Virus record (IMG/VR): IMGVR_UViG_3300032032_000001 | Coordinates: 1 to 64,000 of that record | Origin: a virus | Direction: 5' to 3' (one strand) | DNA: 64,000 nucleotides | Part shown: positions 38,101 through 57,231 of the stretch, piece after piece | Numbering within the stretch: position 1 is the stretch's first letter | Layout: each line of letters starts with the position of its first letter | Made by a program: the position numbers and the translations under genes | The notes under the pieces: generated by a model | The model's input: the letters and a program-made list of their open reading frames with translations, nothing else | The model's database searches: none | Told to the model about the DNA's origin: nothing

Positions 38101-39893
38101 GGCGTTGGCATAACATGAAGGTGACCAACAACAATACCGGACACCTAAGTACGTCAACCGACCACCCGGAATTAGATCCTACTACCCCTGATTATGTCGG
38201 GGGCCACATTTGGGTCAGGCAGGGTGATGGTTGCTCTATCACCAATAACAATACGTCAGGTGGGTTTATCGCCCTAGGTGACACCAGTTCATGGAACGAT
38301 AACTGGTCTCAAGTTGTAGATTTTTCGGCTCCCGGAGCTTCCGGATCGTGGGATTGCTATAACTCCTCTGTCTCGAACAACCGTACACACGGAGGGCCTA
38401 TCCTTGTTCACGGGTACGGCGCTACGATTACGGCGAACAATACTAGGAATGACAAGAACAGCACCAACAACTACTTCCAGTACGACGGACAGATTCGCGT
38501 ATATAATTCTTCCAAGTTAATCGTCAGCAACAACAATGTTCAATCAGGGATCGTAATCCAAGACTGTAGGGTGGGTAACGTTTCCGATAACATTTTTAGG
38601 GGCACAATCGAGCTAGTTGATGCACCTGACTTTGTAGTTGCAGACAACAACGGCGCACTCGAAAACTCATATGATGGCACCCTTTTACTAAAAAGTGACA
38701 TTACCGTAGCTAATTCCTCCGGCACCACTGTGCAGGGGAACAAGCTCATTCGTCAGGGAGGCATCACCTACAGAAACTATGGCGATACGAGCCGGAGCAG
38801 TAATGCTTACAACGCCGGGGTCGTACGTGTGTTTCCAGGAAGTAACACCAACAGCCCGAACAGTTGGTACGGCGGGAGCGTTCCTGCGCAAACAGCTGGA
38901 GATACCATTGAACGACTCGGCGGGGAGGTGCGCATCAGCGCTTCCAAGGGGGCGAGGATAGTTAATAATCAAGTGGCTAGGATCTTCTGTGAGGGCTCAG
39001 ACTTATTACGAATTCAGGGCAACCTGTGTGCCTATGGTGGCGCACGTCCTAAAAACAAGTATAACTGGGGGATCAAGATTGAGGGGCAGTCTGATAACTA
39101 CCTCATCGACGGTAATGAGGTTAAGGGGAACATCCAGATAACTGCGGCGGATGGAAACATAGGGTTGAGCAAATCAGCCGCTTCGTCTGGCGGAATGATC
39201 ACCGGTAACCGCGTTGGTACTGAGTCGATGACCGGAGCCATACACATTTCCAATGGCAATACAATTGGAACTGGTGGAACTGGTGATTGGCGCGGCGGTG
39301 GCGGCATGATTGTTGTTGATGAGATTGGTGGTTGTCACATAACTAACAATCATCTGAATGTGGGCGGCTATGCCGGTGCGCATTCTGGGTATAACTCTAA
39401 CAACGTCTATGACGGTTGTGAGTTTGGCTCCATCTATCTGAACAGGAGAAAGAGGGCCTCTTTCAGGTTGAATACAGCCTCCTCTCCCAATTTCACTATT
39501 TCTTGGCCCCGTTACCAGAAGTCTGTATATGTTGCTAACAACACTATGGGCTCCCTCTGGATTGCGGAACCCTCGTGGATAGAAGAGAACCCAGTGGGGA
39601 CGAATACTTTCCGTGCGCACATGGGGCTCCTACCTAACATGACCGCCAGCACCTCTTATAATGATTCGGGGAGCAACATCGGCGGGAACCACGAGATTAA
39701 CGGAACTGGCCAAATCGATCACTTCAATTATGTACTTGGACTGGATTTTAACTGGGCCTTCTCTGGGAACGCAGATAACTCTGGGTTTGTCCAGCACAAC
39801 AGCTTCATGACGGCACTGATGAGCCTTCCAATCGCCGCACACTGCGCTGGCAATATGTTAGCTAGCAACAATGACCCGGATGATCAGAACTAA
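32157..39893 (+). CDS. Tailspike/receptor-binding protein with right-handed parallel beta-helix
   Basis: GGAG RBS; 2578 aa; C-terminal ~1100 aa has dense [IV]-x-[NG]-N repeats (VIENN, VKNNT, IITNNH, IISGNL, ITGNN) typical of pectin-lyase-like beta-helices. Confidence 0.7.
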   Translation: MAYKYFGRLAGKTHTAQKSLTESAPPNTLTPFNPQAPATKLLAYGEDATSLTFNRALSALASNVDHIAAVLDAPTTKYEIIQPYRQTIDGDWTEGQWNHGCVSLGQQSMSGIETGQEELHMPEVASLDPTPSYWVHLGIHKSNLPERVRFFRVQNSIVGSPQSTGYNLHSEVTSGAPNPEIDGHAVPSVHHIARPEDAYLNTALHSATQSYFDYTYKTQGTQQYLGTEDHGVVIHIPPIERMKPNIAPYAMDWHSEPIYKWDADGVYLKSSTFASLNLRPGCFVEISGDGDESVNKGNNGLFQVAAIGKSDHLPSMGGPGDKAILTRGGLCKVTVRDWRIYGRGELVSWASAPNHMDQEDNTAQKPGLRKNYAHVAYIIPRPDITGNPTDEPGDVYLASYAAADDAPDAIGFGPATKAGTPAVAGSERYSGRYRYGDIGSPDQEGVVRDHTGSIIMDALQNHGILPGTRLYHGHAHFYPGNSPWGTAYPAAYSEVMGELDGVPDGIVGPGEPVVFDTETMPGKVWPCAPSGFVLNPSFSFHPENSLYAGEYCAEVKTLTTVKESLSPNNAVKGDRKKPEISILRAWHKFIRTGHISPSNAPWNGAGHSSDPSAAIIPPKGDDLNVMGAPTRTILGGDLWHVVFEHHFGTDHGSLQSAYNKYLQIGGMNEWVGDHASVSVGPDKIYYPVFLNSPVVGRPSTRARFSSISADHAVIYDVNVKPDGEWSTQGWDGWDYGMERGWPIEVGTILAFPTVDGNVSWKVAYIAKAPYVDDAQGRGMIPGYGLNAAYNTDYSASPLMRGPNDIGASSHKAGFGNVIWVNPLRPFTTVLPGGDTLSDGGTHEDGWNGSFAKGEIAHLTRSNNDLYISLHRLCSRDNDHVRAEVAVKYASSSAQVLDDNGAAYGQRSYDESMVGGDARSTRMLLTDPTTQTFGSSPEIGAWDVPNIGLDEMHSTYRDGNYPKHGVYLSSNYSKVNEKYTYPNPGGLENKPAFDARSTPIEMQDRSILGSIEGVLLGNYSPFHESIGTGTEGGRGLYDADSFGALSNGVIKGGRAWIKRQEIHNGASDAVGNLWDNQVLMTNAYLHVGGAKWFQLAQTLTFAVNGNYLISWCADRKKYITESITEHSSGLIENSGPPTTHWEVGQDARKICCYIASVSGGVVQSVTDVRLRVGRQDQKTNIYVGSINPLHGQSSHFNMMHNGGYIDDSMNFSTLGEAFAALTFWTKNSSINRRWTVEVVGPTFESYWRWDKTAYDSNLAPDDSAETRGIEFPIKIPCNGVTVRGIRGKNAGDGKNDDLAGSNFLYAHAGWEKGDNVKESQEDDRNKSPVIYWKHPLDRPVPGLFDLDGRYGITFENLSFHYQGTIDSSFSSHTDWGPDYRRDVPQDVVFCAGNEAYLDEQLQDIDPGDQNLGAHGRDREAFDHLYGSHTTPSNMAYSGGWKFSNLYVRGGGGLLTTLDARYSLDNVIVKDCHAHDVMSFVTMGIDLFNMPHSSWDHKQQRGKHHTRVVIENNKASFPGIRHIINGQTGETEIHGTLTHYAPGTFNAGGPFEEQWEDPFEITYGDGAGYDGEITPNGAKYFCGVYASQCKEIYVKNNTFKSFYAGVVFGRPLKMNVSPASGFNQEPFCEGYIESNVIQNTQSHGVYVLSQTSPSNIHVKNNTIKDPGIPYGAGEPWSGSNAHPNIFDHEAWGIKLLAGGTVCSGNVINNTWRTSPELNWGSGNEGHLFCDRTGTAFPAFSRLYPTAGGIYAYSTKTGTVDPSNPLEGECVGVENIITNNHILLSGRATFGVLISTGSYGTQVMDNKIIHEGSPVQADVPDYSSQDFMDNLFRYPWGVWTGKQCNRTQIVGNQLGANVFIAEESPNSIISGNLVSMPYSMSKPKAQNGDGGCLVYTSSWGTSIINNKLSCGNITMGGVGTGVSDSRITGNNLAPFGEVRIDTSSWNVLDNGATAWTAITINGSGSNIVVDDNNTNFGDITAASGGRWHNMKVTNNNTGHLSTSTDHPELDPTTPDYVGGHIWVRQGDGCSITNNNTSGGFIALGDTSSWNDNWSQVVDFSAPGASGSWDCYNSSVSNNRTHGGPILVHGYGATITANNTRNDKNSTNNYFQYDGQIRVYNSSKLIVSNNNVQSGIVIQDCRVGNVSDNIFRGTIELVDAPDFVVADNNGALENSYDGTLLLKSDITVANSSGTTVQGNKLIRQGGITYRNYGDTSRSSNAYNAGVVRVFPGSNTNSPNSWYGGSVPAQTAGDTIERLGGEVRISASKGARIVNNQVARIFCEGSDLLRIQGNLCAYGGARPKNKYNWGIKIEGQSDNYLIDGNEVKGNIQITAADGNIGLSKSAASSGGMITGNRVGTESMTGAIHISNGNTIGTGGTGDWRGGGGMIVVDEIGGCHITNNHLNVGGYAGAHSGYNSNNVYDGCEFGSIYLNRRKRASFRLNTASSPNFTISWPRYQKSVYVANNTMGSLWIAEPSWIEENPVGTNTFRAHMGLLPNMTASTSYNDSGSNIGGNHEINGTGQIDHFNYVLGLDFNWAFSGNADNSGFVQHNSFMTALMSLPIAAHCAGNMLASNNDPDDQN

Positions 39894-39908
39894 AAAGTAG
39901 GCGTAGCC

Positions 39909-39942
39909 GGAACTCCCCTCCCCATGACGGGGAGGGGGTTCC
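39909..39942. terminator. GC-rich hairpin between convergent blocks; probable terminator
   Basis: GGAACTCCCCTCCCC-ATGAC-GGGGAGGGGGTTCC lies between the stops at 39893 (+) and 39959 (-). Confidence 0.6.
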
Positions 39943-39958
39943 AAGCCCAATGAAAGAC

Positions 39959-40348
39959 CTAGCCAATCTTGCCTTCAGCGGCTGCTGCCTTGGCACCGCC
40001 CACAAGGGCTTCGGCCAACTGCCGCTTGTTCATCTTAGAGTATCCGGAGACACCCTGCTCACGAGCAGCGAGGCGCAAGTCCTTAACAGGCCTACTGCTC
40101 ATCACAGCTTGGACAGCCTCGGACGCGGCGGGTACTTTCTTTTTAGTATCCTTCTTTGCGGTGCGCTTCGCCGTAGTCTCGCTTGCGAGCTTCTTGGCAT
40201 TGGTGCGAGCGCGTCGCTTCTTGGCGCTACGTTTAATAGCGCCGGTGGTCCCTTCAATACCTTTCACGGTGTAGAAGGTGGCAACACCAACCATGACAGC
40301 TTGGATTGAACGAACAATAACAGGGTTACGAAGAATTCCACTTAGCAT
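39959..40348 (-). CDS. Membrane-anchored Rho-N/HeH domain protein
   Basis: AAGGAGG RBS before ATG 40348; hydrophobic IQAVMVGVATFYTV; Lys-rich linker; PVKDLRLAAREQGVSGYSKMNKRQLAEAL is the Rho_N motif. Confidence 0.7.
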   Translation of the reverse strand: MLSGILRNPVIVRSIQAVMVGVATFYTVKGIEGTTGAIKRSAKKRRARTNAKKLASETTAKRTAKKDTKKKVPAASEAVQAVMSSRPVKDLRLAAREQGVSGYSKMNKRQLAEALVGGAKAAAAEGKIG

Positions 40349-40402
40349 AATATCCTCCTTCAGGATTTGGTTGTGGATAGCGATAGAAGAGTATTCTTCC
40401 AT

Positions 40403-40424
40403 CACTATTCTTATGCCTAAAAAA
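40403..40424 (-). promoter_or_regulatory. Putative phage promoter P1 (TTTTTTAGGCATAAG-AATAGT-G)
   Basis: One of four copies of W-tract-GGYATAAG-N5-TG, each heading a - strand transcription unit. Confidence 0.65.
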
Positions 40425-40447
40425 GGGGGCACTTTTGCACCCCCTTA
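40419..40447 (-). terminator. Intrinsic terminator of the phosphatase gene
   Basis: Minus strand GGGGGTGC-AAAA-GTGCCCCC-TTTTTT just after the stop at 40453. Confidence 0.75.
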
Positions 40448-40452
40448 GTCCC

Positions 40453-41205
40453 CTAGCAGATGTGGATAGGGTCACAGTAAACGGAATCCGCCTTCACCGC
40501 GTGAAACCCAACGTTGTCGCCGTCCTTCAGGATTGCTGCGCAAAGGTGCCCACCATGAACACAGCCCAAGTCCAATCCCGTTGCGTGCTTAAACTCGACG
40601 GGGGAGTTGTGGGATGTGAACGGTTGGTGTCCGAAGTAGACATGTCCAAAACGACCATCGTAGATATCTGCCCAAAAGTCATCCTGAGGAGTCTCTTCCC
40701 CAAAGACGACCATTGACCCAGAGTCATCCACAAACCGAATGAACATTGTCCGCTCGGCCCTCTTTCGCTGCTTATTTGACATCTCACCCAAGACGGCAGG
40801 GAGCGCCTCCATCCTCGGGGTGATACCCCCGTGGACAACCACGAAATCATCACGTTTCACATATGTGACTACCTTGCTCCGTAGCCAATCGCGTAAATCC
40901 TGGTCTGTTGACTCCATAACGCCGGACAGCTCAGTAGCGTATTTCATCTCCATCGCTTTTTCGACGCCACCGTTCTCTACCTTCTTCCAGAATCGAATGT
41001 TTCTCGACTCGTGATTTCCCTGGACTACCGTCGCCTTGTCGCCAAGGTTTCGGACGTACTTGAGAACTCCGGAGCTATCTGGGCCCTTATCAACCAAGTC
41101 CCCAACGAATATATACTCCGTCACCCCACGGTCGCTCAGGTCTCCAATAAGCACCTTTAGTTCTTTGAGACATCCGTGAACATCTCCAATAATTGCTGTA
41201 GCCAT
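40453..41205 (-). CDS. Metallophosphoesterase (PPP/ApaH/PrpE-like phosphatase)
   Basis: GDVHG, GDLVDKG, GNHE, VHGG, FGH and LDLGC motifs; AAGGAGG RBS. Confidence 0.9.
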   Translation of the reverse strand: MATAIIGDVHGCLKELKVLIGDLSDRGVTEYIFVGDLVDKGPDSSGVLKYVRNLGDKATVVQGNHESRNIRFWKKVENGGVEKAMEMKYATELSGVMESTDQDLRDWLRSKVVTYVKRDDFVVVHGGITPRMEALPAVLGEMSNKQRKRAERTMFIRFVDDSGSMVVFGEETPQDDFWADIYDGRFGHVYFGHQPFTSHNSPVEFKHATGLDLGCVHGGHLCAAILKDGDNVGFHAVKADSVYCDPIHIC

Positions 41206-41251
41206 AAGGCTATCCTCCTTGTGGTTGTGTTTTGGTAAGGAACTTTCCTTA

Positions 41252-41273
41252 CATAGCTCTTATGCCATTATTA
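41252..41273 (-). promoter_or_regulatory. Putative phage promoter P2 (TAATAATGGCATAAG-AGCTAT-G)
   Basis: Same motif and spacing as P1, P3 and P4; followed by hairpin GTAAGGA-AAGT-TCCTTAC. Confidence 0.65.
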
Positions 41274-41293
41274 GTGTGTGATATTGCGTAGAT

Positions 41294-41334
41294 AAAAAAA
41301 GGGAGAGAGCCTTCGTAAGAAGACCCTCTCCCTT
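41294..41334 (-). terminator. Intrinsic terminator after the AT-hook protein gene
   Basis: Minus strand GGGAGAGGGTCTTC-TTAC-GAAGGCTCTCTCCC-TTTTTTT; the two G-U wobbles form only in the - strand RNA. Confidence 0.85.
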
Positions 41335-41360
41335 AACCACAACCCCGAAGGAGGACGGGA

Positions 41361-42101
41361 TTACTTTACGTACTTACTTGGATCAGGGACCTTGGTAAGG
41401 TCTTTGATCATGGGCTCGTCCTCCTCAACAATAATACTGTTGATGATGTACACGAGTGTATTCGTAAGTAGGTTATTTGCCTGAGTCTGTTCTTGGCGGA
41501 TCGCCTGTAGTTGACTTTCAAGCTCAGAGAGCTTGCTCATCAAGGCGGTCGCGGCAGGATTTTTCTCAGTTGTTTTGATTTCCAGATCCGCAGGGGCGGC
41601 CTCTGCAACCTCATCAACCTCCTCAACCTTCTTAAATCCCGTAGTTGCTTTTCGCTTAGGGCTTTTGGTTGACTTCTTGATCGGTGCCACAGCTGGCTTA
41701 GCTACTGCCTCTGGCTTTTTACGGGGTCGCCCCCTCTTCTTCTTAGGCTCTTCCACCACAGCCTCGACAGGGGTCTTTACCTCTTCCGAGACCTCGTCGC
41801 TGGTGTCCTCATCGGTCCCCTCAGGGGGCCAGGACGGGGCGGTGCATTCGCCAAGAATAAATTTTTGTAGACGCTTGATGTAACTTCCAACACCCGTTCT
41901 AAAGGTGTCTTCAATTCCTACGCCGCTGATACTAAGCCCAGCAAACTCTTCTGCTCGCTCATGAATCCATGAGACTACTTCAGCCTCTTTCATGGTGTAA
42001 GCATCGAGAGGCTCTAAGCCCATTCCTACGATTGCAATTTTTCTCAATTCGGCACGGTCTAAAGGACCGAGCATTTTCTTTGTAAAGCGTTTAGTCGCCA
42101 T
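41361..42101 (-). CDS. AT-hook DNA-binding protein with C-terminal coiled coil
   Basis: GGAGG RBS before ATG 42101; PKKKRGRPRKKP AT-hook; LMSKLSELESQLQAIRQEQ heptads. Confidence 0.65.
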   Translation of the reverse strand: MATKRFTKKMLGPLDRAELRKIAIVGMGLEPLDAYTMKEAEVVSWIHERAEEFAGLSISGVGIEDTFRTGVGSYIKRLQKFILGECTAPSWPPEGTDEDTSDEVSEEVKTPVEAVVEEPKKKRGRPRKKPEAVAKPAVAPIKKSTKSPKRKATTGFKKVEEVDEVAEAAPADLEIKTTEKNPAATALMSKLSELESQLQAIRQEQTQANNLLTNTLVYIINSIIVEEDEPMIKDLTKVPDPSKYVK

Positions 42102-42381
42102 AGGTAGTTTCCTCCATAAGTTTGTTGTGACAGTACACAACGACACCGTCATGATGATTGTAACAGTTACCATCGCACGGCAGTGATAGCCTGTTCCGGT
42201 TCTCCTTAATGTACTTTGTTAGTTTATCTCTTATTGGGTTAATTGGGCTATTTGTGACTTCATCTGTCTTATACTGAAGAAAGTCGTGTAATTGCTGGGT
42301 AGGCGTTGATGGGCAAGCCCGGACTCCCATCTGCTCCCAAACAATATGCAGCAACTCACTCTTACTCGCACCCGGGTTCAT
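42091..42381 (-). CDS. Hypothetical protein with C-terminal Cys/His cluster
   Basis: Overlaps both neighbours in the operon; LPCDGNCYNH...YCH. Confidence 0.6.
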   Translation of the reverse strand: MNPGASKSELLHIVWEQMGVRACPSTPTQQLHDFLQYKTDEVTNSPINPIRDKLTKYIKENRNRLSLPCDGNCYNHHDGVVVYCHNKLMEETTYGD

Positions 42382-42803
42382 GATAACTCCTGTATACTAA
42401 ACCTGATACCAACAAAGTCGCTATCAGGGCCGTGGTGCTTTTTTACGAACTCCTCTATAAAGCAGGAGTCATCAATAGCTAAGCACTCAGCAATAACGTC
42501 CTCTAGTACCTTGACCAAGTTAGATACGTCGCGTCGCTTATATCTAGTCTTGGCCTTCTTTGGCCACCCCTTGTTATATAACGAGGGTAGGAAATAGTGG
42601 ATATTTAATCGGTACGGGTGATCCGGATTCAGTGGGCGCTTTTTGAAGCCCACCTGCTTCGCAATTTGAACAGAGGCCTTAGCTTTGAACTGCTTCATTT
42701 TAGATGACGGCCTTGGGCCACGAGTCGTGTAAACGTACATGTCATTCACCGAGGGAGGGAGTATGTCAATCTCCGCCTCAAAAACAATTGGTTCAGTCTT
42801 CAC
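42378..42803 (-). CDS. rusA: RusA-like Holliday junction resolvase
   Basis: LPPSVNDMY and RRDVSNLVKVLEDV...IDDS motifs; start uncertain (GTG 42803 preferred over the track's 42884). Confidence 0.75.
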   Translation of the reverse strand: MKTEPIVFEAEIDILPPSVNDMYVYTTRGPRPSSKMKQFKAKASVQIAKQVGFKKRPLNPDHPYRLNIHYFLPSLYNKGWPKKAKTRYKRRDVSNLVKVLEDVIAECLAIDDSCFIEEFVKKHHGPDSDFVGIRFSIQELS

Positions 42804-43359
42804 GCCGCACCCGCTTAAAATTACCCGGAAAGGATTTAGATTTTGATGGCTGCGGCCTTGAGAAAACCTCTTGCCTGTCGCCATCCTCCTGGGTTCGGAA
42901 CCACAACTCCCGACCCAGCCGATCCATACTCTTACTTATTTTACGGAGCCTAGCCTCATGCACGTCTACCTGGGCTTTAAAATAAACGTAGTCTCTTTTG
43001 GCACCTAGGCATGATTTTGTGATGAACGCCTTCCGCAGCTCTGAGTTTGTAAGCTTGCTGTCCCTCGCCGTGGCCAAGGTGGCCTCCGCCGCGACAATTT
43101 CTAACCTAGCTTTGCTTATGGTCGCATAACTACTAGCCTTAGCCAGTTGGTCTGATATGTATTCGAAAAACGACAAATAGGAATCATACAGACCCTTGAT
43201 GTCCTCGTTTGGGAGGTACTTCAGGCCTTGTGGGATCCTAGGCTCCTCACCGGGTGGTTCCCGGTCAGGGGAAAATCCGGTAGCCCGTAAGTCGTTCTCT
43301 AACGTAGTTCTTAGCGCCAGGAAGACATCCTCCTCCTGGTCTGGTTTTTTATCCATCAA
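42793..43359 (-). CDS. Helical coiled-coil protein, possibly UvsY-like recombination mediator
   Basis: All-helical; sits in the recombination cluster; UvsY resemblance is weak. Confidence 0.4.
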   Translation of the reverse strand: MMDKKPDQEEDVFLALRTTLENDLRATGFSPDREPPGEEPRIPQGLKYLPNEDIKGLYDSYLSFFEYISDQLAKASSYATISKARLEIVAAEATLATARDSKLTNSELRKAFITKSCLGAKRDYVYFKAQVDVHEARLRKISKSMDRLGRELWFRTQEDGDRQEVFSRPQPSKSKSFPGNFKRVRRED

Positions 43360-49574: not shown

Positions 49575-49631
49575 AAAAAACAGAACGCAGGAGGGAGGAG
49601 TGCGGTTAAGAAAACCTCCCCCCTGCTTCTG
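49575..49631 (-). terminator. Intrinsic terminator/attenuator between ssb and polA
   Basis: Minus strand CAGAAGCAGGGGGGAGG-(16-nt loop)-CCTCCCTCCTGCGTTCTG-TTTTTT, immediately before the polA RBS AAGGAGG. Confidence 0.75.
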
Positions 49632-57176: not shown

Positions 57177-57211
57177 TGGCCTCCGGGTTTAGTGTAATTG
57201 TGTGTGGTTAG

Positions 57212-57231
57212 CATGGTGCTTATACCAAAAA
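57212..57231 (-). promoter_or_regulatory. Putative phage promoter P3 (TTTTTGGTATAAG-CACCAT-G)
   Basis: Motif copy heading the ~16-kb replication operon. Confidence 0.65.

Follow-up and report, generated by a model that had tools for sequence, protein, structure and literature searches.

The window, the whole 64-kb stretch of phage DNA that was analysed, is the first part of a 148-kb IMG/VR record (83% complete according to CheckV; 50% G+C), and DNA of this phage is found in marine metagenomes. A DNA search gave no match to any isolated phage and the PolA protein is at most 33% identical to that of any isolate, so annotated relatives are of no help. A replication and recombination operon of approximately 16 kb occupies the - strand from 57176 to 41361 and encodes, as judged by Pfam and PHROG matches, a helicase, a DnaB-like helicase, a family A polymerase, a RecA-like protein, a Cas4-like nuclease and RusA. 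Immediately 5' of the polA Shine-Dalgarno (SD) sequence is a terminator-like hairpin (49575-49631, - strand; 19-bp stem, 16-nt loop, U6; MFE -36 kcal/mol, z -3.7), the 3' arm of which is CUCCUCCCUCCU, and there is no promoter behind it; polA and the genes beyond therefore depend on read-through, which must occur in this operon. The last gene of the operon encodes an AT-hook protein of 246 amino acids from the start used by its homologues (42101), the longest ORF extending to 42173. This protein has no match in Pfam or PHROG, and its 12 homologues are 38-100% identical to it, one of them giving a faint AT_hook match. A 95-aa protein with a Cys/His motif (LSLPCDGNCYxHHDG; 42091-42381, - strand) is encoded upstream of, and overlapping, the AT-hook gene; its mean column identity is 76% over eight phages, and the CACAAC and GGAGGA in the AT-hook gene start region come from its last codons. 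On the 3' side of the operon, on the same strand, are two short monocistronic units, each with its own promoter-like motif and terminator. The features of the region are as follows.

41361-42101, - strand: AT-hook gene, the last of the operon (KRKRGRPRK motif, basic protein; from the ORF list)
41344-41359, - strand: small hairpin CCCG-UCCUCCUU-CGGG (reading; MFE fold of the terminated 3' fragment; covariance model, 27.9 bits)
41348-41355, - strand: hairpin loop UCCUCCUU, an anti-SD sequence (AAGGAGG on the + strand at 41348-41354)
41335-41344, - strand: GGUUGUGGUU, predicted to be single-stranded in the terminated RNA (CACAACC on the + strand at 41338)
41294-41334, - strand: intrinsic terminator by sequence reading, with a 16-bp stem (41334-41299), 4-nt loop and U7 (41300-41294)
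41252-41288, - strand: candidate promoter P2, CGCAATAT, 15 nt, GGCATAAGA, gcTAtG (putative, from motif recurrence)
41206-41251, - strand: P2 leader, with the 5' hairpin GUAAGGAAAGUUCCUUAC, a CACAACC box (41229-41223) and the SD AAGGAGGA (41220-41213); phosphatase start at 41205
40453-41205, - strand: NinI-like Ser/Thr phosphatase gene (Metallophos; Pfam PF00149, 2.8e-15; phrog_246, 1.6e-27)
40349-40439, - strand: candidate promoter P1 and P1 leader (TGCAAAAGT in the loop of the preceding terminator, GGCATAAGA at 40417-40409)
39959-40348, - strand: small early gene with candidate promoter P1, encoding a Rho_N-like C-terminal domain (Pfam PF07498, 3.6e-5, narrowly missing the cut-off)

In each of four marine RNA-seq libraries, from three studies, two or three 151-nt pieces match the AT-hook, phosphatase or Rho_N gene (39962-41942); eight are identical to the window and one has four differences. 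The phage is thus present in marine RNA preparations, where DNA carry-over is also possible. These pieces are confined to the three coding regions, leave 41277-41438 uncovered, and are uninformative on expression of the element described below.

A hairpin between stop codon and terminator

The original prediction had drawn attention to 41294-41360, between the stop codon of the AT-hook gene and its terminator, as an RNA segment antisense to early-gene leaders, and a reading of the - strand gives the same sequence at the same coordinates. The UAA codon (41363-41361) is followed by U-CCCG-UCCUCCUU-CGGG-GUUGUGGUU and then by the terminator, the hairpin starting one base after the stop. In the window phage the hairpin can be extended to 8 bp over 41340-41363, stop codon included. 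Its CCUCC is unpaired with a probability of 0.99 in the MFE and ensemble folds of the terminated 3' fragment. CCUCCUU matches the standard 3' end of bacterial 16S rRNA, and the 3' end of the host's own 16S rRNA may differ. Beside the hairpin, GGUUGUGGUU is complementary to the CACAACC box of both the P1 and the P2 leaders. The U tract of the terminator is absent from its + strand side. Hairpins with a CCUCC loop are not enriched genome-wide (14, compared with 17.5 +/- 4.5 in shuffled sequences), and since such a hairpin is common by chance it is conservation at an orthologous position, rather than mere presence, that sets the element apart.

Across 39500-43000, no Rfam family reaches its gathering score (the best hits scoring, for example, 27.7 against 80.4 bits). 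Reading of the sequence reveals no internal promoter or processing site from which a separate small RNA might arise, and there is no promoter motif in the last 200 nt of the AT-hook gene. Two other local structures were considered and rejected: a UUCG-tetraloop fold (CUCC-UUCG-GGGG) that is possible in the window, the sequence of which is lost in two relatives (L018 and L013), and an antiterminator formed by the loop and the 5' arm of the terminator, which amounts to 5 bp or fewer in the window.

Conservation of the element in relatives

Relatives, all of them uncultured, were gathered through the AT-hook homologues, their contigs, and loci encoding the conserved upstream 95-aa protein. An exact 20-mer scan of IMG/VR found only one relative, which was already known, and a scan of metagenomes contributed a single further locus, a distant one in which the element is missing. 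A match in a Planctomyces MAG was discarded as spurious, since it spans 32 residues and has no related genes alongside.

The original prediction depended on conservation in relatives, and this is found in the nearest clade, where eight variants keep a CCUCC(U)U-loop hairpin at the same place, with a 4-6 bp stem, 0-9 nt after the stop codon and 5' of the terminator; several more distant relatives (L008, the L010 group, L017 and L021) are without it. The AT-hook proteins of relatives carrying the element have identities of 38-92% where measured. The element is identical in contigs with AT-hook proteins 92% and 78% identical, and in the relative with 66% identity its sole change is the addition of one C to the 5' arm, making the stem longer; in the same relative the adjacent terminator stem is altered with its pairs retained. 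The variant with 48% identity reads CCCUG-GACCUCCUU-CAGGG, the one with 39% reads CCCCG-ACCCUCCUU-CGGGG, and the one with 38% has CAAGA-CCUCCU-UCUUG within a longer CACAAC/GUUGUG helix; three further phages have GCCCG or GUCCG-U(A)CCCUCCUU-CGGGC. The loop core CCUCCU is invariant in all eight variants, and the different stems (CCCG/CGGG, CCCCG/CGGGG, CCCUG/CAGGG, CAAGA/UCUUG, GCCCG/CGGGC and GUCCG/CGGGC) all pair. Terminator stems likewise vary among relatives and still pair. Each of the eight terminated fragments is predicted to have the same fold, comprising the hairpin with CCUCC unpaired (P 0.93-1.00), a spacer, and the terminator with its U tail, and the wobble pairs U.G and G.U in L046, the window phage and L018 can form in the sense RNA but not in its complement. 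When the variants were made into a covariance model, each genome gave a single strong hit, in every case at the orthologous site. The UUGUGG that follows the loop is less widespread, being present in the window phage, L002, L007, L018, L014 and L013 and absent from L045, L046 and L049.

As to the covariation that a structured RNA might display, stems that differ and still pair speak for it, but the formal pair count in a model-fitted alignment is not above that of shuffled sequences. This is probably because the variable loop length (6-10 nt) shifts the register, and we count it neither for nor against the structure. Lineage-specific coevolution of the element with the leaders did not emerge either: when eight elements were swapped against eight next-gene start regions there was no cognate preference (mean -7.9 vs -6.3 kcal/mol).

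Among the phages without the CCUCC hairpin, the next gene of L008 and L021 has a promoter and is on the same strand, whereas the L010 group and L017 have a convergent next gene and a different small hairpin. This other hairpin is conserved at the same place in L010 (3296-3325), L017 (1520-1545) and L016 (3310-3341, where the contig stops before the next gene), and has the form GCCCU-ACCUGAUC-AGGGC, with the variants GCCUCUAC and ACCUGACC. Three metagenome contigs of the family break off 29-38 nt past the stop codon, where the 36-nt terminator palindrome begins (L005 at 961, L006 at 916 and L007 at 2511); three independent ends at that point are most likely an assembly effect.

Predicted pairing with early-gene leaders

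Both the P1 and the P2 leader have a strong SD, preceded at a distance of a few bases by a CACAACC box. A bipartite CACAAC...GGAGG motif occurs six times, compared with 1.4 expected, and the six include early leaders and the complement of the element. The P1 leader carries CCACAACC (40376-40369) and AAUCCUGAAGGAGGAU (40367-40352), and can fold on itself as AUCCU-GAAGG-AGGAU (40352-40366, - strand), partly burying its own SD. The P2 leader (41206-41251) resembles one in G000 at 146823-146886 (- strand), both having a hairpin GUAAGG...CCUUAC, CACAACC, an SD and CC(A)UUAUG, a likeness in sequence that suggests that they are paralogous and belong to a small family of such leaders. A promoter-like motif shared across the phage family, (t)GCAA(a/t)a, approximately 15 nt, GG(C/T/G)ATAAG(A/C) and nnTAnTG, is found at 41252-41288, 40403-40439 and 57190-57226 (- strand), in G000 beyond the window, and in G001 and G002. 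It recurs 5' of short genes with a strong SD, and the window genome has at least 12 GGTATAAG sites.

Thirteen contiguous pairs had been proposed between the element and the P1 leader, and these are indeed formed by UCCUGAAGGAGGA (40365-40353) with UCCUCCUUCGGGG; the run is even longer, reaching 16 contiguous pairs with three G-U (GUCCUCCUUCGGGGUU with AAUCCUGAAGGAGGAU). The element is in effect close to the reverse complement of a 16-nt P1 segment, with three A-to-G differences that all still pair as G-U. The best contiguous pairing of the element with any of the other 157 start regions is 12, making P1 the outlier among 158, and shuffled elements gave at least 13 pairs with P1 or P2 in 0.36% of 5000 trials. 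The further pairing proposed between UUGUGG and an upstream CCACAA corresponds to GGUUGUGG with CCACAACC. With the P2 leader (CACAACC-AC-AAGGAGGA, 41229-41213) the predicted 8 + 7 pairs are found, and the MFE of the read-through RNA has 9+1+7; the longest perfect inverted repeat between P2 and the element is 8 bp. A third proposed target did not hold up. The 8-nt P3 match (UAACCACA/UGUGGUUA) is present, a long way from the P3 SD, but the two relatives whose genomes were compared do not share it and the P3 start region ranks only 17th of 158, and we regard it as a chance pairing.

Potential partners were ranked by cofolding the 74-nt 3' fragment with 158 predicted start regions, using an energy that charges for opening both partners. 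P2 ranks first (-14.8 kcal/mol) and P1 second (-13.8), the third region being at -13.2, so that P2 and P1 are only narrowly ahead of other strong-SD leaders. When more candidate regions were included, P2 ranked 1/298 in the window genome and 4/349 and 1/231 in two relatives, and P1 ranked 2, 22 and 4. The start region of the AT-hook gene itself (42101) is outside the 15 best partners, offering only 6+6 bp around a large internal loop. The evidence for pairing thus consists of thermodynamic prediction together with conservation in eight variants.

Proposed silencing of early genes, rival explanations and known systems

What might a conserved anti-SD loop at the end of a replication operon do? 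The reading that we tentatively prefer, from sequence and modelled structure, is that the element silences translation of the early genes next to it, in trans, with an effect in cis as a by-product. RNA from the 3' end of the operon would carry the conserved hairpin, whose loop copies the ribosomal anti-SD (CCUCCUU), and in the clade of the window phage the loop and the following GUUGUGG tract are together antisense to the CACAACC box and AAGGAGGA of the adjacent leaders. By covering the ribosome binding sites (RBS) of the phosphatase (P2) and Rho_N (P1) genes the element would turn off their translation, at a time set by transcription of the 16-kb operon reaching its end. Pairing in trans would be by the terminated mRNA 3' end or by a terminator-protected fragment of approximately 70 nt. 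A minority of transcripts would continue past the terminator, and in these the phosphatase RBS would be locked in cis by the same base pairs. We infer promoters, RNA expression, pairing in vivo and repression alike. Since the loop is the exact anti-SD heptamer and the complementarity in the clade extends beyond the SD, RBS occlusion would be the most economical function, and the 16-nt match to P1, 1 kb away and past two terminators, favours action in trans. The trans mode would also explain the sRNA-like shape of the element and the persistence of the hairpin in phages whose next SD is not complementary to it. A cis lock would account for the top rank of the adjacent start region as a partner and for the placing of a promoter between the two strands. 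The modes are mutually compatible, and either or both may fit. The original prediction had offered precisely these two alternatives, an sRNA or a lock in cis, and both gain support from the rank of P2 and P1 and from conservation, with P3 lost as a target.

Might the element act in cis only? The anti-SD would then operate solely on terminator read-through RNA, and the phosphatase would be translated only from mRNAs started at P2. This we consider possible but doubtful, and several observations are consistent with it. In the window phage, L002, L018 and L014, the MFE fold of the read-through RNA has the SD of the next gene in a helix with the element, the terminator and the P2 promoter being enclosed; predicted SD-to-element pairing probabilities are 0.91-1.00 (MFE, ensemble). 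In the ensemble, the SD is left unpaired with a probability of 0.002, 0.006, 0.002 and 0.06, respectively, in the read-through RNA, compared with 0.65, 0.83, 0.58 and 0.14 in the promoter-initiated RNA, where the SD is thus mostly open in three of the four lineages (L014 being the exception). A conserved GGCATAAGA-type motif, a candidate promoter, lies between the pairing strands in all four, in the window phage between the anti-SD and the phosphatase SD. In three genomes the adjacent start region comes first or nearly first among partners genome-wide, and the base flanking CCUCC on its 5' side is in each lineage complementary to the one following GGAGG (U:A, A:U, AC:GU); a phage-wide SD preference as the source of this loop base was rejected, because the base after GGAGG is mixed in three of three genomes. 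The hairpin before polA implies that read-through occurs in the operon, the phages with a convergent next gene (the L010 group and L017) are without the CCUCC loop, and there is a precedent in T4 genes e, soc, 49 and I-TevI (PMC3014915). However, a 16-bp stem and U7 inside the proposed helix should make read-through rare, the P1 match is left unexplained, and L008 and L021 are without such a hairpin despite their same-strand, promoter-bearing next gene. In addition, the hairpin is kept in L013, L045 and L049, where the SD of the next gene is not complementary; the lock is not predicted in L013 and L045 (probability 0.00) and is partial in L046 and L049. A purely cis lock is therefore an inadequate explanation of the hairpin's retention.

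It is unlikely, but conceivable, that the hairpin has another role altogether, as a site bound by a phage or host protein, a mimic of the 16S rRNA 3' end serving as a decoy, or a helper of 3' stability or termination, the complementarity to leaders being a by-product of CCUCC. L045, L046 and L049 keep the loop without GUUGUGG or any extended complement to the neighbouring leaders, the swap test indicates no more than a generic affinity for strong-SD, CA-rich leaders, and the position of the hairpin 0-9 nt past the stop codon in all variants hints at a link to the terminating ribosome. An invariant loop that is the exact anti-SD heptamer would nevertheless be improbable for an arbitrary protein site, and in the clade of the window phage the complementarity far exceeds the SD (16 contiguous pairs with P1, two helices with P2).

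The least probable explanation by far is that the element has no RNA function and is a relic, an inverted leader of a former + strand gene, or an inverted repeat that matters as DNA, for example an invertible promoter segment: the + strand is leader-like (CACAACC-CCG-AAGGAGGA, differing from the P1 leader mainly by a 5-nt deletion) and three metagenome contigs end within the adjacent palindrome, but, as originally noted for its AAGGAGG, no ATG, GTG or TTG stands 4-13 nt 3' of AAGGAGGA (the closest ORF on that strand begins at 41392) and no + strand start codon follows in any relative, the element is unchanged apart from one extra C across 66-92% protein identity with differing stems that pair, the wobble pairs favour sense RNA, no perfect inverted repeat with the P2 leader exceeds 8 bp, and contigs ordinarily end at a 36-nt palindrome in assembly. 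A leader relic, which was originally named as a finding that would undo the prediction, is thus improbable.

The preferred reading, silencing mainly in trans, can be extended to an RNA-only switch from early to middle expression, in which the length of the operon would act as a delay line and a mimic of the 16S anti-SD would silence CACAACC-marked, strong-SD early mRNAs. This extension is speculative and rather improbable as it stands; if true, the delay-line switch would do the job of the RegB nuclease in T4. In model phages, early genes are shut off post-transcriptionally by proteins (T4 RegB and RegA) and by local RBS hairpins. A conserved anti-SD element at the 3' end of an operon would be an RNA-based route to the same end, and a phage example would thereby join the small number of 3'UTR regulators known from bacteria. 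The element would also be a compact test case, with approximately 70 nt, two clear predicted partners and natural variants, from a marine phage family with genomes of approximately 180 kb and no cultured member.

Firmicutes possess regulators with C-rich loops, such as the RNAIII hairpins and RsaE/RoxS, in which the loop presents an anti-SD for fast pairing with the SD. UCCC motifs are found in S. aureus sRNAs (PMC3868564). Those regulators are independent bacterial sRNA genes, and the element has no sequence or Rfam relationship to them. The nearest described anti-SD in a 3'UTR is that of S. aureus icaR, a C-rich motif that pairs with the SD region and blocks the initiation complex, and that according to its authors may operate in cis or in trans (PMC3868564). 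The element likewise places an anti-SD in a 3'UTR, here UCCUCCUU at 41355-41348 between stop codon and terminator. However, icaR targets the SD of its own mRNA and makes an RNase III substrate, whereas the best partners of the element are two downstream genes, and unlike in icaR the motif is in a hairpin loop beside a terminator, in a phage.

In T4 genes e, soc, 49 and I-TevI, read-through RNA buries the SD, and a promoter after the 5' strand gives a translatable mRNA (PMC3014915). The phage element is similar in that the SD is predicted to be paired upstream in the long RNA and the candidate P2 promoter is placed like those of T4. The T4 helices are local hairpins, whereas the element and SD strands are approximately 110-130 nt apart and enclose a strong terminator and a promoter; furthermore, the 5' strand of the element is pre-folded as a conserved loop and also matches the distant P1 leader. 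3'UTR-derived sRNAs such as NarS share the terminator of their parent mRNA (PMC7038943), and CpxQ is cited as a further example in PMC8545117. Like these, the element is at an mRNA 3' end, shares an intrinsic terminator and U tail, and is better conserved in its seed than are the flanks, including the coding sequence that precedes it, a design that would let one operon regulate other mRNAs. It differs in having a generic anti-SD seed rather than a gene-specific one, in belonging to a lytic-type phage operon, and in being known here from sequence only. The element is best called a new form of known kinds, namely the icaR 3'UTR, the T4 RBS locks and the 3'UTR-derived sRNAs.
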